DNA of 39,051 bases from an uncultured Azospirillum sp. (GTDB taxonomy: Bacteria; Pseudomonadota; Alphaproteobacteria; Rickettsiales; UBA3002). The stretch is taken from positions 3,329 through 42,379 of the forward strand of contig CAZUOS010000001.1 of the NCBI GenBank assembly GCA_964621415.1, read 5' to 3'. Position numbers and translations under genes: made by a program. The notes beneath the pieces are model-generated. The model worked only from the letters and a program-made list of their open reading frames with translations. It ran no database searches and had not been told where the DNA came from. Of this stretch, positions 2,577 through 36,915 are shown in pieces (positions within the stretch are counted from its first letter, which is position 1; the number at the start of each line of letters is the position of its first letter).

Positions 2577-3688
2577 AGTTCGGGCACTCCGTAACCACCA
2601 AAGTCAAGGTCCGTCGGGGGGACACTGTCTCCGCCAGTGCCACCGGGGATATCGCCCGTCGATGTTCCGTCCCCACCTGTGGCTTGGTCAGCTGCGGCCT
2701 TGCCGGCGGCGCCCGGATATTCGGCGTCGATGATCGTCGTGTACCCCCTCCCATCCAGTTGATGCTGGGCCGACTTGACCCGCCAGGCGCCATCGACGCC
2801 GCTGCGGACCCCAATCACAGCCAGGGTCATCTCCGCGCCGATCGATGGATTGCCGACGATTGAAATAGATAACGACCCCTGGTCTCTCGCCTGGGCGTCG
2901 ATCGTGCTCTGGGCGTCAGCCCCAGCTTCATCTTCGTTGGCCTGGGCGTGCAGCATTTCGTAGTCCGGGCCGACGTCGCTGTCCCCTTCTTTCTCGACGA
3001 TGACCCGTTCGGCTTTCTTCTGGTCCCAGTACGTCGAGAGGACTTTCTTGACCGCCGGCCGGTCCCGCATCTGGCAAGAATAGTCGATCACCTTGTCCTT
3101 GGTGACGACCGCGGCACCCATCGACTGGCCGGACGCCGACTGGGCTTCTCCTTTCTTCGTGAACAGGAGTTTGCCATTCGCCGGCTTGGCCACAGCGTCA
3201 TGCTTGCGGGCCAGGCGGGTGATGAAATGAAGATCGCTTTCTTCAGTCTGGGGGAGATATTCGTATATAAACGAAGCGAGAGACTGGGAAACGGAAGCCC
3301 CGGACAGGCCGTTCCGGCCAGCAATGTCGTTCATGATATCCTGGAGGGTTTTCTTGTCCCAGTATCCAGTCCGAGGTTTCTTCAGATCCTCCCGCATATC
3401 CGCAGCCTTGCCGCGGATCGTCAGCGTCATCGGATAACCTGTCGCTTCGACTTCGTCGACGGTGAACATGCCCATGGGCTGAAGACCGGTTTCCCGATAC
3501 CCCATGGCCACGGACATAAGGGCGCCCTTCTTCGGAATAGCAATTTCGCCATTCCGATCGTCGAGCTGGATCTCGACTGTGTCCGACTGCTTGCCTTCGG
3601 CATCTGTCACGATCAGCGACACGAGGCGATCGTTCAGATTGCCCGTGACGTCGGTGCCGCCGATGGAAATGCTGAAGCTGGGGGTCAT
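2573..3688 (-). CDS. tail protein D (P2 gpD / late control D family)
   Basis: 371 aa. N-terminus MTPSFSISIGGTDVTGNLNDRLVSLIVTD...GKQSDTVEIQLDD and motif EESDLHFITRLARKHDA are typical of gpD-like proteins. Follows gpU and gpX homologues. Confidence 0.85.
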   Translation of the reverse strand: MTPSFSISIGGTDVTGNLNDRLVSLIVTDAEGKQSDTVEIQLDDRNGEIAIPKKGALMSVAMGYRETGLQPMGMFTVDEVEATGYPMTLTIRGKAADMREDLKKPRTGYWDKKTLQDIMNDIAGRNGLSGASVSQSLASFIYEYLPQTEESDLHFITRLARKHDAVAKPANGKLLFTKKGEAQSASGQSMGAAVVTKDKVIDYSCQMRDRPAVKKVLSTYWDQKKAERVIVEKEGDSDVGPDYEMLHAQANEDEAGADAQSTIDAQARDQGSLSISIVGNPSIGAEMTLAVIGVRSGVDGAWRVKSAQHQLDGRGYTTIIDAEYPGAAGKAAADQATGGDGTSTGDIPGGTGGDSVPPTDLDFGGYGVPEL

Positions 3689-18281: not shown

Positions 18282-18601
18282 TTGTTTTCAGTGTCCTGAA
18301 GCATGGAAATGAGTTTCGCCCGGCTCGTCCTGTCGTTGACCGCCAGGTTACGAGAGGCTGCCAGGGTCCGGAGTTCTTCGATAGTCATCTTGTCGAGGTC
18401 CGGCGGAGTGGGATTAGAAGCCCCGTCACCGGAACTGGCGCCAGTATCCGCCGCATTCGTCTGTTCATTCTCCGTCGTCGATTGTGTCTCCGCCGGGACA
18501 CTGTCCTCGATACGAAATCCCAACCCTTTCAGTTCTTCGATCTTCGCCGGGTCGGAAACGTCGATCTTGTGGCCGTCGCTATCACGAATGAGAATTGCCA
18601 T
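18278..18601 (-). CDS. small acidic protein with C-terminal SAP/Rho-N-like helix pair
   Basis: 107 aa with C-terminus MTIEELRTLAASRNLAV...RAKLISML. GAGGAG SD. First gene after the post-capsid terminator. Confidence 0.6.
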   Translation of the reverse strand: MAILIRDSDGHKIDVSDPAKIEELKGLGFRIEDSVPAETQSTTENEQTNAADTGASSGDGASNPTPPDLDKMTIEELRTLAASRNLAVNDRTSRAKLISMLQDTENK

Positions 18602-18619
18602 TCTCTTCTCCTCTTGGTT

Positions 18620-18651
18620 AAAAGACCCGGCGGAGGTTATCCCTCCGCCGG
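18620..18651 (-). terminator. rho-independent terminator/attenuator after the coat gene
   Basis: Minus strand reads CCGGCGGAGG-GATAA-CCTCCGCCGG followed by GTCTTTTAA: a 10-bp GC stem (18627..18636 / 18642..18651), 5-nt loop and T-run. Confidence 0.8.
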
Positions 18652-18671
18652 TCGTACAATCTCAGCTGGGA

Positions 18672-19844
18672 TCAGCCGAGCATGCGGGCTGCCAGTTCGG
18701 CGCGGAGCGTCTTGACACCGAAGAGGATATCAAAGCGCCAGTGCCTGGTGGCCTTGCCCGGCTCACGCCAGGTTTCCAGACGGAGCGGAATACCCGTCAC
18801 CGGGTCCGTCGCGACGGAAATCGTGGACGACTCCGAGCTTTCCGAGGTCAGCGTGCGGGCCGCGAACATGAACGCGTTGCGGTGGAACGCCAGATTGATC
18901 CCGTAAGTCGTTCCGGACGACGGCTTCGTGAAGGTAAGTCCCTTCGCGGTCGGGAAACCACCGGTCGGAGCTGCGGGATAGAACGAGATGGAAGCAAAGG
19001 CTCCACCCACCGCCGCTACGTCTGCCGTCACGACGAACTGCATCGCCGTGCCGTCTGCGTAGTTCACGTCGGCCACGGTGAACGTATCACCCTTTTTCAG
19101 GGTATTGGTTCCCGTGAAACCGTTCGCGGCCATGGTCGTTGCGCCGGCAGCGACGGCGCCATTGACAGCACCGGTCGCTTCAGCTGCGGCCGTGCCGATC
19201 GTGTGGCGCGGCATGAGCTGATCCGAGAAGGTCTCGAAACCGAACTTGCGACCGAGGGAAGCTTCCACCAGTGCCTCGGTCGAACCGGTCTTCGCGGCGT
19301 CGGCGTAGAGGATGATGAACTTCGCTTCCGCGTTGATATCCAGGACCAAACGACGGTTCTGGAGAGGAACAAGGTTGCGCTGAAGGACGGCACGGACCGC
19401 GACGATATCGTCCGACGCATCCGGAGTCGAACCGGCGGTGCCGGCCGAATACGGAATGTCCTTGTAGAGTGCGACCAGTTCCTTGTCGACGGCGTTGGCC
19501 AGAGCCTTGATGGCGCTGTCCGCGGCAGAGGGAAGAACGCCGGACGTCACCGTCTCGCGCATTTCCTTGTCCGTCATCTTGAACTGCTTGTACTTCCACT
19601 TGTCGAGAACGATATCGACTTTCGGATCCTTCAGGTCAGTCGCCGAAGATCCGTTGTCGGTATCCATGTCGCCAGCTTCACCGAGATCCTGCGGCAGCGG
19701 GACGCGGATGGTGGCGTTCTGTTCCGCCGCTTCCGCGGCGAAGTCTGTAGACACGAGGGCCGGCATGACGCAGGCTTCACGGAGAACCGGAAGGGCTGCA
19801 GGCATGATGATCGTGTCCATCAGGTCCTGAAGGTCGTTTGACAT
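18672..19844 (-). CDS. major capsid protein (P22 coat protein family)
   Basis: 390 aa. ...INLAFHRNAFMFAARTL...DPVTGIPLRLETW resembles P22 gp5-like coats. Preceded by the scaffold gene. Confidence 0.9.
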   Translation of the reverse strand: MSNDLQDLMDTIIMPAALPVLREACVMPALVSTDFAAEAAEQNATIRVPLPQDLGEAGDMDTDNGSSATDLKDPKVDIVLDKWKYKQFKMTDKEMRETVTSGVLPSAADSAIKALANAVDKELVALYKDIPYSAGTAGSTPDASDDIVAVRAVLQRNLVPLQNRRLVLDINAEAKFIILYADAAKTGSTEALVEASLGRKFGFETFSDQLMPRHTIGTAAAEATGAVNGAVAAGATTMAANGFTGTNTLKKGDTFTVADVNYADGTAMQFVVTADVAAVGGAFASISFYPAAPTGGFPTAKGLTFTKPSSGTTYGINLAFHRNAFMFAARTLTSESSESSTISVATDPVTGIPLRLETWREPGKATRHWRFDILFGVKTLRAELAARMLG

Positions 19845-24889: not shown

Positions 24890-27019
24890 TTATCCGATTT
24901 CGAAGATCGTCACATCGTCGTGGCAAGTGAAGTCGACCTGGCTTACGTTTCCACCGCCGCCGGCCGTCGTCCAGGCCAGCGTCTCTTGAGAAAGAGCCGC
25001 CCTGGTGTAAGGCCGGGTGTAACGAACGGGTTTCGACGTCGGGAGGTTCAGCCGGATATTCCTCGAAGTGAAGGAGTTCCCGACAGGCGCTGTCCGTTTC
25101 CAGGACTCGCTGTTCCTCCAGACCGGCAGAAGCCACTTTCCATCAGACCGCTGATAAAGCTGCCAACGGATCGTGCCATCATATTGGCCGACTGTCCCGC
25201 CGTCACTGAACGAGTATTCGAGGTTCGTCTTGTTGAACGTCCTCGCCGTTCCGGCACCGTCCCACATCGCCTTCAGCGTCAGGTACATGATGTACCAGAG
25301 CATGCGACGAGTGAACGTATAAACTCCACCTGCTTGGCTGAAGGCCAGGAGGCCATAAACCTTACCAGGGGAAGTCGGGAGGTTCGGAAGCTCGTGCGCG
25401 TTATCGATCATCTCGAACGCGTTGAAGCCAGTGATCCCCCACCACTGATAGTCGAACATGGACCGCTGGTAATACTTGCAGCGGGCTTCTTCCGTCAGGA
25501 AACGGACTGTGAAGCTGCGGCCGTCTGTGCCGCCGAGTTCCCAGCCTTCTTCCGTGATCTTGACTTTCTTCGCCGGATCGAGATTGACCAGTTCCTTGTA
25601 CTGGGCCATCAACTTCGTGATGTGTATCGTCACATCGTTCGATCCACCTTCGTCCAACAGGCCGTCGGTCTCACCTGCAACGTCCGGCATGTTGCCGCCG
25701 GTGTACAGGTGGAGGTTCGGCCAATCGACCAACGGAACCACGTCACGAGTCCACTGCCTTCCGTTCGGGTTCGTATAAGGCTGGAAAGTGTCATAGTACA
25801 TGACCCCCGCCTGGTTCGCCCGAGCCGTCGTATGGACATAACCTTCATACAGGACACTGCGGATCTTCTGGATCAGACGAGACCACGGAGACCAGGAACC
25901 AATCGTCAGATCCGTCGGCCAGTTCGGGTATTTCGTCATGTTGCGGATTTCATGGCAGATCACATACTGGTGATCGATCACGTAACCGCGCCAGCCGTCC
26001 GGCGACCCTGGCCGAGGATCGTACATCGGTTCGTCCGGGTTATTGGGCTCGTTCAGACCCGCAAAGGCATTCATCGCCTCTTTATAGTAATTGTAACACC
26101 GCTCGATGATCGTCTCGGCGCCGATTGCCGTTCCAGAAAACTGGTTCAAATCCGTCAGTGTGCCGTTGATCCTGACGCCATAATCATCATACATCTTCTG
26201 GATGATCTGGGCCGTCATATTCGTCGAGTTGTCAGGGCAGCCGCAAGTCGAACGGACGAGTTTCATCCCTACGCTGGCCAACGGCGCGAAGTGCCCCAAA
26301 TACCAGCCGGACGTATCGTACGACCCTGTGTTCGCTCCGTTCGCCGTACGATACGCCATATAAGGATCGCCAGACCGACGAGTCAGATACATCTGAAGCA
26401 TCTGGCCGTCGGAAAATTCGATCGCCCGCTTCGGAACGAAGTTTGGATCTGGCGGAACGACGACGTCATCCAGGGTCGAGTCGGTAAAGACTGCCGACGG
26501 CGGACCGAACGTCGATCCGTCCGTGGCGCGGATACGGAAATCAAAAGCCGTACCCGGAAGCAAGACCCCAACGGTTCCCTGGGTCGTCGTCGACAAGTCC
26601 CGCCAGTTATTGGCCGCGTTCACGTCGACCTGGTATTTCGTGGCACCCGGAACGGCGTTCCAGCTCAGGGTGACCGAAGTCGTCGTGCGGCTGACCCGAG
26701 CGACGCCCGTGACCTGGGCCAGTGAAACGGACCCGGTGATCGTGAATGTGAACGAGGCATCCAGGGTCCTCCCAGTTTCCAGTTCCGTCATTCGAACCGT
26801 GCAATTATAAGTCCCGGCCACGTCGCTGATCAGGCTCAGTACCGCGTCGATGATCTGCATGTTCGCAGACCCCGATACGATCCCATAGACGACCCCGGGC
26901 GTGTTCGACTTCAGGACAATCGAAGGATCCGAACCAGCAACGGCGTCCACAGTCAAAGAACAGGTGAACGCCAGAGGGATGACTTCGCGACCGACCCGAA
27001 GCTTATAGAACCGCGTCAT
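24890..27019 (-). CDS. Ig-like + FN3 + putative clan GH-A (TIM-barrel) glycoside hydrolase; candidate polysaccharide depolymerase
   Basis: 709 aa. FN3-like SVTLSWNAVPGATKYQV (aa ~115-130). AFAGLNEPNN (Glu324) resembles the NEP acid/base motif, and KITEEGWE (aa 488-495) resembles the nucleophile motif ~166 aa later. ATGA overlap with the upstream gene. Confidence 0.65.
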   Translation of the reverse strand: MTRFYKLRVGREVIPLAFTCSLTVDAVAGSDPSIVLKSNTPGVVYGIVSGSANMQIIDAVLSLISDVAGTYNCTVRMTELETGRTLDASFTFTITGSVSLAQVTGVARVSRTTTSVTLSWNAVPGATKYQVDVNAANNWRDLSTTTQGTVGVLLPGTAFDFRIRATDGSTFGPPSAVFTDSTLDDVVVPPDPNFVPKRAIEFSDGQMLQMYLTRRSGDPYMAYRTANGANTGSYDTSGWYLGHFAPLASVGMKLVRSTCGCPDNSTNMTAQIIQKMYDDYGVRINGTLTDLNQFSGTAIGAETIIERCYNYYKEAMNAFAGLNEPNNPDEPMYDPRPGSPDGWRGYVIDHQYVICHEIRNMTKYPNWPTDLTIGSWSPWSRLIQKIRSVLYEGYVHTTARANQAGVMYYDTFQPYTNPNGRQWTRDVVPLVDWPNLHLYTGGNMPDVAGETDGLLDEGGSNDVTIHITKLMAQYKELVNLDPAKKVKITEEGWELGGTDGRSFTVRFLTEEARCKYYQRSMFDYQWWGITGFNAFEMIDNAHELPNLPTSPGKVYGLLAFSQAGGVYTFTRRMLWYIMYLTLKAMWDGAGTARTFNKTNLEYSFSDGGTVGQYDGTIRWQLYQRSDGKWLLPVWRNSESWKRTAPVGNSFTSRNIRLNLPTSKPVRYTRPYTRAALSQETLAWTTAGGGGNVSQVDFTCHDDVTIFEIG

Positions 27020-30252: not shown

Positions 30253-30882
30253 TTACGGAGTCGGCGGTGCCGCGTCGGTCGTGAACGATACTGCGGCAGC
30301 GCCAACGTTCGACGTGTTGCCCCAGCGGTCCACCTGGACGACGCGGAAGTAATATGTCTGTTCGGGCTCCAGATCCACAAACGATATTGACTGAGTCGTT
30401 CCGGCCGTTGCATCGGCAACCCCGGACGCCGCGGCCGCCGTATTGTCATGCATGTGACCATCTTTGATCTGTTGAGCCGTCACGGCGTCTGCCGCGAGGG
30501 ACAAGATCCAGTGGTGTTTGCCAGCGCCTTCGGTTGTATCGAAGACCCCCGTGCCACCGTTGTGGCCCAGTTTCGTCGCGGCGACGTTCGACAGGACCGG
30601 CGCCGTCGTATCCGCATAAAGGATCGTCAGTTCAACGATGCCATCCGTGGGCTGATCCGCCCGGGCGAAAACTTTGTCCGATGCCCCCAGGGTCGTGAAC
30701 GTAATTTCGTCGGAGCTGTCGCGATCGATCATGACATAATCGTTCGTATTGAGATCCGGAACTGTCGTTCCGACATGGATACGGACGCCGGATGACCGCT
30801 TGCGGCGGAGGATCACGGCGGCTGTGCCCGAGGCGACCTCCTGCCATTCGGACGCCGTCAGGGCAACGGATAAAGTCTTCAT
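30253..30882 (-). CDS. hypothetical protein with C-terminal FN3-like domain
   Basis: 209 aa. ...LEPEQTYYFRVVQVDRWGNTSNV is FN3-like. GGAGGA SD. Confidence 0.65.
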   Translation of the reverse strand: MKTLSVALTASEWQEVASGTAAVILRRKRSSGVRIHVGTTVPDLNTNDYVMIDRDSSDEITFTTLGASDKVFARADQPTDGIVELTILYADTTAPVLSNVAATKLGHNGGTGVFDTTEGAGKHHWILSLAADAVTAQQIKDGHMHDNTAAAASGVADATAGTTQSISFVDLEPEQTYYFRVVQVDRWGNTSNVGAAAVSFTTDAAPPTP

Positions 30883-30995
30883 ACCGATCCTCCATAGACA
30901 TAAGCCAGAATGGCCGTTGCGACGAAGACGCCAACGATGGCCAGAGTGGCAATAGCGATAACGGCGCGGGAAACCCGAACAGGTTCTTCAGTCAT
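30879..30995 (-). CDS. small membrane protein (38 aa), not in the ORF track
   Basis: My own translation is MTEEPVRVSRAVIAIATLAIVGVFVATAILAYVYGGSV. Its TGA overlaps the ATG of the next gene (ATGA), and its start overlaps the upstream gene by 8 nt. Confidence 0.35.
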   Translation of the reverse strand: MTEEPVRVSRAVIAIATLAIVGVFVATAILAYVYGGSV

Positions 30996-31215
30996 CTTCG
31001 TTCACCACGATCGTGTCAGTCGCGGTCTTCGTCAGGAGGATCGCGGCCATGCAAAGTTCAGACGCTTTCATCTGCGACCAATCAATGTCCATCGTATCGT
31101 CATCCCACTGAATGATAACCGCGACGTTCTTGATCCGATCAAGTTTTCCTAAGGTCCGATGAAGGACGACTTCGGGAGTGAGTGTCGTTCCCGGCAGATG
31201 TTTGACTTCACCCAT
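30988..31215 (-). CDS. hypothetical protein (75 aa)
   Basis: I prefer the ATG at 31215 (GGAG 9 nt upstream, TGATG overlap with the Mu F-like stop) over the track start 31233. Confidence 0.5.
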   Translation of the reverse strand: MGEVKHLPGTTLTPEVVLHRTLGKLDRIKNVAVIIQWDDDTMDIDWSQMKASELCMAAILLTKTATDTIVVNEDD

Positions 31216-33059
31216 CAGAGTTTCTCCGGCCATAGTCTTACCCAGGCGGCGTAGTCCCTCTGTTTCAATTCGTCAAGCGTTAACGCTTTGCCATCCACAC
31301 TGAAACTACCGAGTGGCACCCCGCCGGATTTCCACAACGTATATCGAGCGTCGCCCAACGTATCCCGCTGGGTTTCTTCGTCCTGTTCACTGAGCCAGTT
31401 CTCATAAGTCGGTTCGGCTTCGACCGGCGACCCGACGGGGATGGTTTCTATTGTACACCTGCAGTTACCTGTAGTAATACCATCGGCAACGATCAGATGG
31501 TTTTCCGTTTCGAGGTTATAGACATGTCCATGAAAATCGCGACGACCCACAAAGACTATATCATCAAAGAATACCTCGCCGGGAAAGGCACAACACAGAT
31601 CAGCGGCTATCTGGGCATTCATCGGATATCCGTCCGAAGGATCCTTCAGCTGAACGGAGTTCAGATCCGAAGCCGCAGCGTAGCCATGTCCCTCCGAATG
31701 AAAAACTCGACCCCCGAACAACGGCAGGCCCTCACCAAGAAAGCCCATGACGCTGTCCGCGGAAAGAAAGGAAAGAAACGGACCCTGGAGTCTCGTCTCA
31801 AACACGCTCTCACCAGAGAACGGCGTGGATCGCAATTCCACTTGTCCCCTGGCGAAAAGATCTTCTCTGCAACGCTGGCAGACCTTGGCCTGGTTGGTAT
31901 CCCCGAAAAAGCGATCGGTCCATACAATTGCGACTTCGTGTTCGGTTCCGTCGCCGTGGAAATCTTCGGCGGCGGTTGGCACGATGGCAGTATTACGTCC
32001 GCCAGGAACCAAGAACGGGTCCGCTATATCTTGAATGCGGGCTACTCGTTGCTGATGATTTCCACGAGTAGGCATACTATGACCCCGGAGGTCGCAAAGT
32101 ACGTGGCAAGTCTCATCAAGCGCTTGCGCCGGAAGCCACCCGCGATCCGTGAATACCGGATGATTTGGGGTGCAGGCGAGTTCGAAACCCGAGGCCGTGC
32201 GGATGACGACGAGCTGTCCCTTAAATTTCCTCTTCGCCGCAGCCGTGATCGGCTGGGTCGTTACAAGGGTATCCCCCGGTAGACAATTAAAATGGATTGG
32301 CGGTCGCGGCCCTTCCCCCACCGGGAATATCTCACCCGCCAATTCGGCGCAGGCCAAGCATGCTCGGCTATCAAGTGTCGTAATCCACCGGACCCCTTCG
32401 AACAGGTCCGGGTTCTCTTTCGCGAATGCCTCGTGGCTCTCGTTATGAGCCGAAGCGGTTGCGGTCCTGACCGCGGCTTCGAGCATCCGCCGGCTGACAG
32501 CGAATGCGCCGTCTTTGTAAGACAGCGACTTCGTTCCGGAGACCCGCTTGACGATCTGGTCCATGGACTCGCCCTGGACCAGACCCATCGTGACGGCGTC
32601 ACTGATACGCTTCTGCGAAGAAGCGCTCAGATCGTCGAACCAGGTCTTCAGAAGCCGGCCCTGGAACGGCTTGTTGTCGACCGCGGCTTCGAGCAGCCGC
32701 GACGTGGGAACGTTGAACTTGACACCGATCGTTGCCTGAGTCGCTGCCAGGGTCTTGGCGAATTCTCCTTCGCTCTTGGCCAGATCGACGAGTTCTTTCC
32801 GCGTCCCTTTATACATGGCGCGATGGGCGGCCACGTTGATCTTCTTGATTTCAGCGAGGAGTTTCTCCAGCTGACGACGGGTCGCGGCGCCGTAGCCAGC
32901 CTCGGTATCGTGGGAAGCCAGCCACTTCAGAAGCTTCCGTTCGATATCCGCCTCGGCCTTATCGAGGATAGCGGCGATCTTACGGATAACCCCCGTCGCG
33001 AAACGCTCGACCCCAATGCGATGGAGGATCTGGGCATCAAGCTTCGGGGACGTTGCCAC
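31215..33059 (-). CDS. head morphogenesis protein (Mu F / SPP1 gp7 family) interrupted by an in-frame intein
   Basis: 614 aa with a GTG start. The family motif is split as PPIHFN / intein / CRCT. Lies directly downstream of the portal gene. Confidence 0.9.
   Translation of the reverse strand: MATSPKLDAQILHRIGVERFATGVIRKIAAILDKAEADIERKLLKWLASHDTEAGYGAATRRQLEKLLAEIKKINVAAHRAMYKGTRKELVDLAKSEGEFAKTLAATQATIGVKFNVPTSRLLEAAVDNKPFQGRLLKTWFDDLSASSQKRISDAVTMGLVQGESMDQIVKRVSGTKSLSYKDGAFAVSRRMLEAAVRTATASAHNESHEAFAKENPDLFEGVRWITTLDSRACLACAELAGEIFPVGEGPRPPIHFNCLPGDTLVTTQPITAAAKRKFKGQLVVIRTASGFELACTPNHPVFTDRGWLPAQALDETCHVLCDLRGHSMPTRGNHQQRVARIQDIADPFLVPGGRNTAIVPTAAEDFHGDGTEHEVAIVWTDRFFGDTNQAKVCQRCREDLFARGQVELRSTPFSGESVFETRLQGPFLSFLSADSVMGFLGEGLPLFGGRVFHSEGHGYAAASDLNSVQLKDPSDGYPMNAQIAADLCCAFPGEVFFDDIVFVGRRDFHGHVYNLETENHLIVADGITTGNCRCTIETIPVGSPVEAEPTYENWLSEQDEETQRDTLGDARYTLWKSGGVPLGSFSVDGKALTLDELKQRDYAAWVRLWPEKL
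31464..32285 (-). mobile_element. intein (274 codons, aa 259-532 of the Mu F-like protein)
   Basis: Starts CLPGDTLV (Cys1 codon 32283..32285). Block B is ACTPNH. Ends HVYNLETENHLIVADGITTGN (Asn codon 31464..31466) followed by Cys+1. Confidence 0.85.
31524..32282 (+). CDS. homing endonuclease candidate: N-terminal HTH + Vsr/DUF559-like PD-(D/E)xK nuclease, encoded antisense inside the intein
   Basis: HTH is GTTQISGYLGIHRISVRRIL. Nuclease core is IGPYNCDFVFGSVAVEIFGGGWH...RVRYILNAGYSLLMI. GAGG lies 8 nt upstream of ATG 31524; alternative starts are 31497 and 31530. The last ~50 codons are probably just read-through antisense to intein blocks A-B. Confidence 0.7.
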   Translation: MSMKIATTHKDYIIKEYLAGKGTTQISGYLGIHRISVRRILQLNGVQIRSRSVAMSLRMKNSTPEQRQALTKKAHDAVRGKKGKKRTLESRLKHALTRERRGSQFHLSPGEKIFSATLADLGLVGIPEKAIGPYNCDFVFGSVAVEIFGGGWHDGSITSARNQERVRYILNAGYSLLMISTSRHTMTPEVAKYVASLIKRLRRKPPAIREYRMIWGAGEFETRGRADDDELSLKFPLRRSRDRLGRYKGIPR

Positions 33060-34497: not shown

Positions 34498-36915
34498 TTA
34501 TATGAGCTGACCGGCAATCCCGCCGGACCTGGACTTTTCAAACAGAGTATTGAACGCGTCGGCGGCAGAGTCGACCTGATCGTCGTTCTTACCGAACGGG
34601 AAATGCCTCAGTTCATTCGTGAACGGGTAATTCCAGTCGCCCCGCTTCATCATCACGGACCCAACGTTGACCTGAGCCGCGAAAGGTTCGGCCCTTGTCA
34701 CTTTGTCTCCGCTCACAGGAGCGCTGACAACGGAAAACCCTCCCAGGGCGCGAGTCAGATACGTGATCTGGGCTTTGCCTGCCTGGCCCGGATCTTGGGG
34801 AAGCTTGATCTTCACCCGCGGGCCGTCGAGCTTTGCCGTCGAGACGATCCGTTCTTCGACCTGATCGGGCGTTCCCTGGAAACGAGTGACGTCCTTGATC
34901 ACGAACCTGTTCGCCGGGGTCTTGCCGATCAGCGTACCGACTGTCCAGTCGCCGTCGTTCTTCGTCGCTGCGAGATCCCAAGCCCGAACCCATTGGAGGA
35001 CGCCTTCGGTCGAGTCGACGACCTCGATCTTGTCCGGCTTGAAGATACCGCCGGCCGGGGGAACGGGCTTCTGCTGGTACTGCGAAGAGAACGACCACGG
35101 CTTCGCTTCCTGCATACGGAGGAGATCCTCAACGGAGTGTTTCTCTTCCCACAGGGCCGTGCCGTCCTCCTGAAGCGCCGGGAGATTGATATGGTCCCAG
35201 TGCTCGCCGTTTCCGCCAGCCAGAAGCCAGCCTGCCAAATCCTCTTCATGCAGACGCTGCATGATCAGAATGATCGGCGTATCCTTCGTGTTCTTTCTTG
35301 ACTCCAGCGTGTCCTGGAACCAGCGGATGACCTGCGGCCTGATCACATCCGAGTCTGCTTCCCCCGGCTTGTGGGGATCGTCAATAATTATACAATTAGA
35401 AACTAGAACTGGCTTTTGGGCCACGTAAAAGTTATTATTGTTCCTCACTTCCAAACAGAAGGTATGATCAACATGGCCAATACGACGAATGAAAACTGGA
35501 TGCCGGTCCCAGGATTTGAAGGATTTTACGCTATCAGTGATCAGGGGAATATCAAAAGCCTTGACAGAACTATCATTCACAAAAACGGTATTTCTCAAAA
35601 AATCGCCAGTCGTATCCTGGTCCCGAAAATCAGTAAAAAGTATCTCCGGGTCACACTGTCCAAGAATTCCAAACTCCATTTTGTTTTCATTCACCAACTT
35701 GTCCTGAAAACTTTCGTTGGCCCTCGGCCACCGGGAATGGAAACCCGACACCTTGATGGGGATTACTTCAACAACCGGCTCGCAAACCTCGCTTATGGAA
35801 CCAAGTCCCAAAACATGCAAGACGCTATCAGACACGGGACATTCCCGCTTCTCGAACGGCGACCCGGCGCCAAACTTACACGAGACCAAGTTATCCAAAT
35901 TTTCACGAGTCAACAGTCGCCGATTGAACTCGCTAACAAATTCGGTATCGTCCCAGGCGTTGTTCGCCAGATTAAACTCCGGCAGACATGGGTAACCATC
36001 ACGAAAGACCTGCCCGACCCCATTTGGAATTTCAAGCCCAAACATTCCGAAGACGTCATCGCAATCGCCAGCGATCTGACGATCAGCCGAAAAGAAGCTA
36101 TGACAAGAACCGGGCTGACCCTGGCTCAACTCAAACATATCCGGAAGAAGAGTCGTGTCCGATAAATACTGAGCTTCCATCCAGCCTTGTGACGTAAAAA
36201 TCTTATGATTAGGCGTACACTGGAAAACCGTCCCATCGCTTAATGTAACTTCCAATATCTCATTCGGAGGATTATGCCACAACGTATCGACAGGCTGGAG
36301 TTCTTCCTGACCCGTCTGAAAATTATATGACCAAACGCGGATATCCTCTCCACGTGTAACGATATCCCCGATCTTTATCAGTCCCTTTTCCGTGTGAACC
36401 AATTCATCATAGGGGAAACAGCCACCGAAGCCCGGCCGGACCTTTCCCGCGCCATAGCCTGTAATGGTACCCTGAGCACCTGCGGCATAGACACAACCGC
36501 CAGCCGTGGTACGCCATTCGTCTTTGGCCTGCGTATCATCCCGCAGTCCCACATTCGGGAACAGGAGGTGATAGTCCTCGTGCATGGCGATCTCCCGGGC
36601 TTGCCAGGAGTTCGTTGCAGCGAGGCGGGCTGCATAGGACGTATGAATGAATTCGGCGTCCGGCGCCATTCCGATCCCCCAGGGGATGAAGTTGACGACG
36701 GCCAGTTCGGTCTTCGAATAACGAGGCGGCAGGTTGATGACCAGCCGGCTCGTTTCGCCGCGGAACACTTTCATCAGCGCATCGCATATCATCTTGTGGT
36801 GCGGCGCCTGATGCCACTTGAAGCCATGACGGGCTTTGAACATGTAGCGGACGAAGTAATAGTAGTCTTCCCTCGCCAGCTTCTGTGCGATCAGCAGTTC
36901 TTCGCGGGTCATCAT
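34498..36915 (-). CDS. terL: terminase large subunit interrupted by an in-frame intein
   Basis: 805 aa. The ATPase N-terminus carries LPPRYSKTE (Walker A-like), and the Walker B-like strand is split as GFGG / intein / CIIIDDPHKP. ATGA overlap with terS. Confidence 0.9.
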   Translation of the reverse strand: MMTREELLIAQKLAREDYYYFVRYMFKARHGFKWHQAPHHKMICDALMKVFRGETSRLVINLPPRYSKTELAVVNFIPWGIGMAPDAEFIHTSYAARLAATNSWQAREIAMHEDYHLLFPNVGLRDDTQAKDEWRTTAGGCVYAAGAQGTITGYGAGKVRPGFGGCFPYDELVHTEKGLIKIGDIVTRGEDIRVWSYNFQTGQEELQPVDTLWHNPPNEILEVTLSDGTVFQCTPNHKIFTSQGWMEAQYLSDTTLLPDMFELSQGQPGSCHSFFSADRQIAGDCDDVFGMFGLEIPNGVGQVFRDGYPCLPEFNLANNAWDDTEFVSEFNRRLLTRENLDNLVSCKFGAGSPFEKRECPVSDSVLHVLGLGSISEVCEPVVEVIPIKVSGFHSRWPRANESFQDKLVNENKMEFGILGQCDPEILFTDFRDQDTTGDFLRNTVFVNDSSVKAFDIPLITDSVKSFKSWDRHPVFIRRIGHVDHTFCLEVRNNNNFYVAQKPVLVSNCIIIDDPHKPGEADSDVIRPQVIRWFQDTLESRKNTKDTPIILIMQRLHEEDLAGWLLAGGNGEHWDHINLPALQEDGTALWEEKHSVEDLLRMQEAKPWSFSSQYQQKPVPPAGGIFKPDKIEVVDSTEGVLQWVRAWDLAATKNDGDWTVGTLIGKTPANRFVIKDVTRFQGTPDQVEERIVSTAKLDGPRVKIKLPQDPGQAGKAQITYLTRALGGFSVVSAPVSGDKVTRAEPFAAQVNVGSVMMKRGDWNYPFTNELRHFPFGKNDDQVDSAADAFNTLFEKSRSGGIAGQLI
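35395..36420 (-). mobile_element. intein (342 codons, aa 166-507 of TerL)
   Basis: Starts CFPYDELV (Cys1 codon 36418..36420). Block B is QCTPNH. Ends HTFCLEVRNNNNFYVAQKPVLVSN (Asn codon 35395..35397) followed by Cys+1. Confidence 0.85.
35473..36165 (+). CDS. NUMOD4/HNH (HNH_3-type) homing endonuclease encoded antisense inside the terL intein
   Basis: MANTTNENWMPVPGFEGFYAISDQGNIKSL, then HQLVLKTFVGPRPPGMETRHLDGDYFNNRLANLAYGTKSQN, then an HTH-like KLTRDQVIQIF...LANKFGIVPGVVRQIKLRQTW. GAAGG lies 10 nt upstream of the ATG (alternative ATG 35464). The segment is locally A/T-richer. Confidence 0.85.
   Translation: MANTTNENWMPVPGFEGFYAISDQGNIKSLDRTIIHKNGISQKIASRILVPKISKKYLRVTLSKNSKLHFVFIHQLVLKTFVGPRPPGMETRHLDGDYFNNRLANLAYGTKSQNMQDAIRHGTFPLLERRPGAKLTRDQVIQIFTSQQSPIELANKFGIVPGVVRQIKLRQTWVTITKDLPDPIWNFKPKHSEDVIAIASDLTISRKEAMTRTGLTLAQLKHIRKKSRVR

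Follow-up and report, generated by a model that had tools for sequence, protein, structure and literature searches.

A class-1 intein in a Mu F-like phage head gene with a predicted Vsr-like homing endonuclease gene on its opposite strand

Can an intein be overlapped, almost from end to end, by a homing endonuclease gene on the other strand, so that even its splicing blocks are coding twice? The question is raised by a stretch of 39,051 nucleotides (hereafter the window, in whose coordinates all features are given) from an uncultured Azospirillum sp. (assembly GCA_964621415.1, contig CAZUOS010000001.1, positions 3,329 to 42,379 of the forward strand). Its minus strand encodes a Mu F / SPP1 gp7-like head morphogenesis (minor capsid) precursor of 614 amino acids (aa; 31215..33059) that includes an intein of 274 aa, and the plus strand of the intein carries an open reading frame (ORF) encoding 252 aa, from ATG to TAG (31524..32282). 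The original prediction, made from the letters of the sequence, was that this ORF is a helix-turn-helix (HTH) plus Vsr/DUF559-like endonuclease gene overlapping the splicing blocks. Its statements on ORFs, coordinates, splicing motifs, the ATG with its GAGG, and the TAG opposite the CTA codon of Leu2 were all correct when rechecked, and the arrangement itself is now backed by homology, Pfam matches, structure prediction, comparative genomics and frame-specific selection. We consider it very well supported that this locus holds an intein whose opposite strand is a gene for a Vsr-like nuclease.

The intein is first delimited by its host gene. The 614-aa protein, of which an identical copy exists in NCBI (P0063), matches Phage_Mu_F in Pfam (PF04233, E-value 7.8e-10) and phrog_241 in PHROG (E-value 1.6e-91). 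It reads ...GPRPPIHFN / CLPGDTLV...ACTPNH...HVYNLETENHLIVADGITTGN / CRCTIETIP, where slashes, here and below, mark the junctions of the insert (residues 259-532); in a longer readout the insert is CLPGDTLV...ACTPNHPVF...GHVYNLETENHLIVADGITTGN, again followed by CRCTIETIP.... The insertion point is the conserved H-x-N/C-R-C motif of the Mu F-like protein. Intein-free homologues (P0104, P0105, P0137, P0144, P0159 and P0162) are uninterrupted across the site, with a contiguous ...GPRPPxHIx-CRSTT..., which fixes the intein at residues 259-532 and implies the ligated product of 340 aa that had been predicted. The gene is then made of an N-extein (residues 1-258, ending ...GPRPPIHFN; 32286..33059), the class-1 intein from Cys259 to Asn532 (31464..32285), for which 62 relatives could be aligned, and a C-extein (CRCTIETIP..., 82 aa and the stop; 31215..31463), both exteins aligning to the intein-free homologues.

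The splicing domain has the usual marks. The class-1 residues are present (Cys259, T297-P-N-H300 and Asn532/Cys533), and both the N-terminal intein model TIGR01445 (30.2 bits, cut-off 24.5) and the C-terminal model TIGR01443 (19.0 bits, cut-off 15.6) are exceeded, with a weak, sub-threshold match to PF14890. The N-terminal splicing region, from block A (CLPGDTLV) through block B, lies at 32160..32285, with T297-P-N-H300 of block B at 32160..32171, and the C-terminal blocks F/G (G511-HVYNLETENHLIVADGITTG-N532) at 31464..31529. In the AlphaFold model of the precursor the exteins and splicing regions are confident, with a pLDDT (the predicted score of the local distance difference test) of 67-90 for the N-terminal region. 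The stop-free middle of the sense frame (residues 351-493, 31581..32009), which is the opposite-strand counterpart of nuclease residues 20-162, has a pLDDT of 29-45 and no Pfam match, in agreement with the earlier failure to recognise a nuclease motif there. We rejected the idea that this middle is the true endonuclease, or a linker domain, on the lack of a family match, a pLDDT below 50 and the variability of its first codon positions described below. A split-intein or fractured-gene organisation was also rejected, the 614-aa ORF being continuous. Given an essential host gene and conserved blocks, the precursor would be expected to splice.

The plus-strand gene lies wholly inside the intein (stop-to-stop span 31497..32282), and the two frames are codon-aligned (register 0, so that the first position of a codon on one strand pairs with the third on the other). 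Its HTH module (residues 13-42, 31560..31649) matches HTH_23 in Pfam (E-value 0.0037) and phrog_1303, 'DNA binding protein', in PHROG (E-value 8.8e-5), and its helices (H7-43) are modelled with pLDDT above 90. A Vsr-like nuclease core follows (residues ~105-203, 31836..32132), delimited by invariant columns, the fold match and an alignment to 3HRL; it contains D137 (31932..31934), E146 (31959..31961) and W152-H153 (His codon 31980..31982). The C-terminal tail (residues 204-252, 32133..32279) mirrors the N-terminal splicing domain of the intein and is largely that domain read on the other strand: GRYKGIPR and the stop are opposite CLPGDTLV, and MIWG is opposite TPNH.

The nuclease has 62 protein homologues, with 32-45% identity and E-values down to 3e-54. 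Their alignment has 16 invariant residues, all retained in the window, and the pattern AIGPYNxD...VAVEhFGGxWH, in which D137, E146 and H153 are invariant and W152 is found in at least 90% of the members. When aligned family members were scanned with Pfam, 22 of 30 matched MTES_1575 (Vsr-like; best E-value 1.1e-9), three DUF559 and one Vsr, besides several HTH families. The AlphaFold model built on the family alignment (mean pLDDT 85.5) has an N-terminal helical/HTH part and an alpha/beta core, and its best match in Foldseek is 3R3P, the catalytic domain of the homing endonuclease I-Bth0305I (E-value 6.5e-4, probability 1.00, template modelling score 0.62 on the target), with the DUF559-like 3HRL at rank 7. 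This is the Vsr-like fold that had been anticipated. Searching PDB sequences with the family profile gave 3HRL (E-value 0.0012) and 3R3P (E-value 0.03), and with the single sequence nothing useful. We therefore base the Vsr-type assignment of the window nuclease on its homologues, the profile search and the predicted fold. The spacing of D137, E146 and W152-H153 is consistent with the description by Dassa et al. 2009 (PMC2677866) of the Vsr-like EDxHD catalytic set: an Asp (Vsr D51), an extra Glu (at Vsr F62), a Trp-His pair (W68-H69) and a second Asp (D97).

Is the plus-strand frame a gene, or is it open by chance? The window has 58% guanine plus cytosine (GC), and in such DNA the open antisense frame alone is not significant: from local codon usage, 252 antisense codons would be open with a probability of ~0.14-0.23. 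The window also contains two long plus-strand antisense ORFs without Pfam match, one of 601 aa in a fibronectin-domain gene (24920..26725) and one of 512 aa in a gene for a P22-like coat protein (18303..19841). These most likely are GC-driven chance ORFs, and serve as an internal control.

The comparative data give a very different picture. Scanning IMG/VR with the nuclease gave 506 stretches encoding relatives, of which 80 loci were fetched, and a second scan, started from the most divergent of the nuclease subfamilies, yielded 249, the two sets partly overlapping. The first locus set comprised the IMG/VR loci, four Logan loci (one homologue), one ENA locus and the window; in 84 of its 85 loci the codon-aligned antisense frame is open across the whole nuclease. 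The frame opposite the nuclease belongs there to an ORF of 400-1400 aa with the layout ...PPxH(P)N/CLPGDxLV...GHVYNLET..GWY.ANGI.THN/CRC.... In the loci of the second scan (L087-L166), all 80 of which have the antisense arrangement, the same Mu F site is occupied by inteins of a distinct subfamily (block A C[LIV]LPGT, block F VYDLQT, end ...SSN/C), paired with the divergent nuclease subfamily, whose C-terminus reads GRFxxR. Once the sets are pooled, 164 of the 165 related viral loci have the nuclease on the antisense strand of an intein that occupies the same Mu F site, and the expectation that related inteins keep the antisense frame open is borne out. Pfam scans of the N-exteins identified Phage_Mu_F in 38 of 62, Phage_min_cap2 in three and portal fusions in five; a narrow hidden Markov model made from the N-extein of the window recognised 25 of 85 exteins and was too specific. 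Matches to the intein of the window also came from three proteins (P0156, P0152, P0169) that have other extein domains (portal PF04860; PF18760/PF23474; Phage_min_cap2), and these are possibly Mu F fusions or cases of extein switching.

The conservation of the open frame can be quantified. Clustering at 80% nucleotide identity leaves the 62 unique inteins of the first set in 61 groups, and their GC content ranges from 42 to 72%. The codons that would read as stops on the opposite strand (TTA, CTA and TCA) make up 0.077% of the intein-interior codons versus 1.38% of the extein codons, and the log10 probabilities of an open frame sum to -106 over these inteins. The homology and conservation of the plus-strand ORF are far beyond chance. 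A chance antisense ORF of GC-rich DNA would be plausible in the window alone, but the comparative data rule it out.

An open and conserved frame on each strand raises the question of which protein is under selection, and where. We mapped the codons onto two protein alignments, one based on the intein and one on the nuclease, and both gave the same picture. Variability at sense position 1 is 0.32-0.47 in the first ~60 codons of the intein and 0.36-0.40 in the last ~30, with 0.46-0.56 and 0.56-0.63, respectively, at position 3, and in both segments the intein is the more conserved protein. Along the ~170 codons of the middle, variability is 0.51-0.69 at position 1 and 0.27-0.59 at position 3, and the antisense protein is the more conserved of the two (identity of 0.28-0.67, versus 0.15-0.39 for the sense protein). 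Position variability thus indicates that the intein frame governs the splicing blocks and the nuclease frame the middle, and the switch falls exactly at the borders of the splicing domain for either alignment basis. Across the intein middle, the frame under purifying selection is the plus-strand ORF. Since the minus strand is translated through the whole insert, the intein frame must nevertheless stay free of stops. Because the products of the two strands are under constraint in different segments, the cost of the overlap is minimised.

The borders of the nuclease gene fall within the splicing blocks themselves. Its Shine-Dalgarno sequence GAGG (31512..31515) is the antisense of block-F Asn515-Leu516 (AAC CTC); its ATG, after a spacer of 8 nt (31524..31526), is the antisense of block-F His512 (CAT); and its TAG stop (32280..32282) is the antisense of Leu260, the second residue of the intein (Leu2, CTA), and abuts the codon of Cys259 (32283..32285). 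We compared codon choice at these residues in the 62 unique inteins with the extein background. The block-F His is encoded by CAT, which gives ATG on the other strand, in 33 of 43 cases, and by CAC, which gives GTG, in the other 10 (background 34% CAT, p 1.4e-8); the Leu of the block-F Asn-Leu is CTC in 45 of 61 (background 25%, p 3e-15); and Leu2, where it is a Leu, is CTA or TTA, which read TAG or TAA on the other strand, in 43 of 49 (background 10.5%, p 7e-36), with the caveat that these p-values overstate independence, the sequences being related, though the set is highly diverged. These biases suggest that intein and antisense nuclease gene could be co-adapted as one double-coding module, with start, Shine-Dalgarno sequence and stop built into splicing residues, synonymous codons selected for opposite-strand expression, and the same logic in the terminase intein described next; we give this proposal an even chance. 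If it is true, antisense homing endonuclease genes would be a general means by which inteins of many phage groups carry nucleases, and one that annotation tends to miss.

The prediction of a second composite of intein and antisense nuclease in the same operon held. The gene of the terminase large subunit (TerL; 34498..36915, minus strand) contains an intein at residues 166-507 (35395..36420), GFGG/CFPYDELV...CTPNH...GHVDHTFCLEV...VSN/CIIIDDPH, and within it lies a codon-aligned plus-strand ORF (35464..36165) with NUMOD4 (E-value 5.5e-14) and HNH_3 (E-value 5.9e-11) domains, both above the Pfam cut-offs. The ATG of this ORF is the antisense of block-F His484, with AGAAGG upstream, and its stop lies opposite the codon of Leu251, after block B. 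The same antisense layout in a TerL intein is seen in four relatives (L167-L169 and L171, 51-53% identity), and two more distant ones (L170, L172) are free-standing. Antisense HNH nucleases are absent from the non-canonical intein types listed in a 2025 survey (bioRxiv 10.1101/2025.01.02.630785), and our literature search found no other report.

What would such an arrangement do? We consider it highly probable that the intein and its nuclease form a composite mobile element, in which a class-1 intein sits in a Mu F-like gene and a homing endonuclease encoded on the opposite strand, not joined to the intein in frame, drives homing; expression, cleavage and homing are expected of this copy from the behaviour of its family and from its intact ORF. 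The precursor would splice into a 340-aa Mu F protein and a free intein of 274 aa, and the nuclease would be made from a separate antisense transcript. During co-infection, the nuclease would cut an intein-less allele around ...CCA ATC CAT TTT AAT/TGC AGG TGT ACA..., with 5'-GGGCCGCGACCGCCAATCCATTTTAAT/TGCAGGTGTACAATAGAAACCATC-3' as the putative empty target site (the HFN/CRC junction). Recombinational repair would then copy the intein and the nuclease gene into the cut allele, and an occupied allele would be immune, because its site is split. The most likely origin is the invasion of a mini-intein, in reverse orientation, by a free-standing Vsr-like homing endonuclease gene, which would be tolerated because, with the frames aligned codon by codon, TTA, CTA and TCA are the only codons to be avoided.

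The distribution of the element fits this mechanism. In GenBank, it occurs in 126 records of phages, namely those of Salmonella (64), Pseudomonas (15), Gordonia (11), Klebsiella (8), Escherichia (6), Vibrio (4) and others. Using as query the intein-less site of Salmonella phage PK1, made in silico, most of the 60 rows sampled among 422 related phage records have an uninterrupted site (79-88% identity), and three have the insertion (PK1, sidste and nctD30). Similarly, 64 Salmonella records have the nuclease versus 315 with a Mu F homologue. Such sporadic presence in closely related Salmonella and E. coli phages, a minority of which have the insert, is what one would expect of an element that is mobile or often lost. 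The copy of PK1 itself (PV360690.1, 2444..3253, plus strand), a Jerseyvirus nuclease reading ...VAVEVFGGGWACTD..., lacks the family-invariant His after the Trp (GGGWAC); this Jerseyvirus copy may be inactive or diverged, although the intein is sporadic in that group.

Several observations weigh against a functional, homing element in the window. The penultimate residue of the intein is Gly (...TTG-N) instead of the usual His, and nearly all relatives end in H-N or S-N. A His at this place in block G is frequent in inteins without being required, and Gly is known to be tolerated in some. On the nuclease side, the Vsr-type models of Pfam are not reached by the window's own protein, and no invariant acidic equivalent of Vsr Asp97 was identified in the family. 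No sigma-70-like promoter or terminator was found in 30800..32700, in a search whose sigma-70 model may not be that of the host. Finally, no close relative of the window phage with an intein-less allele was found: the best Mu F match has 54% identity, and the terminase of the window is only distantly similar to those of the closest phages, which infect Bordetella, Acinetobacter and E. coli.

The lack of a promoter-like site would also be explained if the architecture were real but the nuclease a silent relic, in an intein now inherited vertically and with a plus-strand ORF that is open merely because it has not yet decayed. The family does show decay. In one locus (L073, IMGVR_UViG_3300033233_001346), the sense frame of the intein and its splicing blocks are intact and the antisense nuclease ORF is broken (71 aa from stop to stop), which looks like the nuclease-decay stage expected in a homing cycle, and the Jerseyvirus copy without its conserved His points the same way. 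Some VSR-like clusters are also reported to look vertically inherited in the 2025 survey (bioRxiv 10.1101/2025.01.02.630785). Yet, the window copy retains every one of the family-invariant residues, together with an intact ATG, Shine-Dalgarno sequence and stop, and an unselected antisense ORF would gain stops, since changes that are synonymous for the intein can create them. We therefore find a relic unlikely in the window, although it is the best of the alternatives.

Less likely still, to the point that we give it little weight, is a nuclease that is expressed but not for homing, for which the intein would be a safe harbour while it acts elsewhere, at another site or in the exclusion of competing phages. 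Vsr-like homing endonucleases occur in several contexts, and there are free-standing relatives. In the locus L030 (IMGVR_UViG_3300012005_000094, 2808..3675, plus strand), the nuclease ORF is intact, the opposite frame has stops, and the Mu F gene is uninterrupted (...FIHPG-CRCS...), with a decayed remnant of the intein N-domain under the nuclease tail. This locus, which bears on which of the two came first, may be a nuclease escaped from an intein or a free-standing form resembling the ancestor. However, a single insertion site in a single gene family, over 164 loci and two intein subfamilies, is the pattern expected if the site is the target. As for a chance antisense ORF, or a true endonuclease in the sense-frame middle, neither deserves any real credence: the modest improbability of the open frame in the window and the other long antisense ORFs there are outweighed by the homologues, the Pfam matches, the confident fold, the conservation in genomes of 42% GC and the concentration of variability at sense position 1, and the sense middle has neither a family match nor a pLDDT that reaches 50.

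A composite mobile element of this kind matters in several ways. Few natural examples of antisense double coding over such a length (~750 nt) in a bacteriophage are as clear, and it lends support to the idea that inteins gain homing endonucleases when free-standing nuclease genes invade them. An architecture known from a handful of Gordonia phages proves to be widespread, including in Salmonella, Pseudomonas and Klebsiella phages. It is also routinely mis-annotated, as gene callers miss one of the two, the nuclease ORF or the head gene with its intein. The GenBank annotation of the element is usually just 'head morphogenesis protein' (H1-H40). Conversely, in the Logan loci L002-L005 (SRR255284xx) the 298-aa nuclease ORF is called and the overlapping 514-aa intein-bearing Mu F ORF is not, and L001, a locus that runs to the end of its contig, lists the nuclease alone over that stretch. 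Whichever of the two is left uncalled, one of two overlapping genes is lost in annotation. On the practical side, the family offers compact, separately encoded nucleases that are predicted to be site-specific, and inteins that tolerate an unstructured insert of ~140 residues.

How does the element compare with known systems? The original prediction pointed, accurately when set against the paper, to the fractured genes of Dassa et al. 2009 (PMC2677866), in which a split intein comes together with a free-standing gene for a Vsr-like homing endonuclease. As in these, and in I-Bth0305I (3R3P), the same nuclease superfamily is partnered with inteins of phage genes, and the nuclease is a polypeptide separate from the intein. 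Fractured genes have their host gene in two ORFs, with a split intein; in the window, one unbroken frame runs through host gene and intein, and the nuclease gene overlaps this frame on the opposite strand. The ShiLan-type hidden HNH insertion in phage methylases (Arsenault et al. 2025, PMC11855218) also conceals a nuclease ORF in an alternative frame of an in-frame insertion, but on the same strand and without a splicing domain, whereas here the host is a bona fide intein and the nuclease is on the opposite strand.

The arrangement is rare but not without precedent. Antisense LAGLIDADG homing endonucleases in inteins, as in Synechocystis dnaX, have been known since 1998 (Gorbalenya 1998; Gogarten 2002, as cited), and the cyanobacterial dnaX intein, with its out-of-frame homing endonuclease, shows frame-specific selection (Phillips et al., bioRxiv 2026). 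These inteins also have a homing endonuclease in another frame or strand of their DNA, with the same frame-dependent pattern of selection; unlike the Vsr-like nuclease of the window, theirs are LAGLIDADG enzymes in a cellular host gene.

The closest known relatives are the MuF-like/VSR inteins of Gordonia phages. The supplementary table of Gosselin, Arsenault and Gogarten (bioRxiv 10.1101/2025.01.02.630785) lists 'minor capsid, MuF-like ... VSR -1 ORF' for Malisha, Vivi2, Angelicage, Affeca, Fosterous and others, and its authors matched the endonuclease to Vsr (1CW0) and, with HHpred, to 3R3P. We found that the intein of Angelicage, the exemplar of that preprint, is inserted at ...VIN/CFVAD...ARN/CRC, and that its codon-aligned antisense protein has 32% identity with the window nuclease over 213 aa (E-value 1e-29). 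The Gordonia inteins thus share with that of the window the host gene family, the insertion site (...N/C...N/CRC), the codon-aligned antisense frame, a homologous nuclease and the Vsr / 3R3P fold. By a word search, the main text of the preprint is silent on start codons, ribosome-binding sites, promoters and Salmonella, and neither a per-position selection map nor a distribution outside actinophages was found in the sections consulted. The window differs from the Gordonia phages in not being an actinophage, and in a nuclease ORF that covers nearly all of the intein, block F through residue 2. The kind of element was therefore already known; what our analysis adds, relative to the sections of the preprint consulted, is its spread outside actinophages, the abundance of the family, the signals embedded in the splicing blocks with their codon bias, and a per-position map of which frame is under selection.

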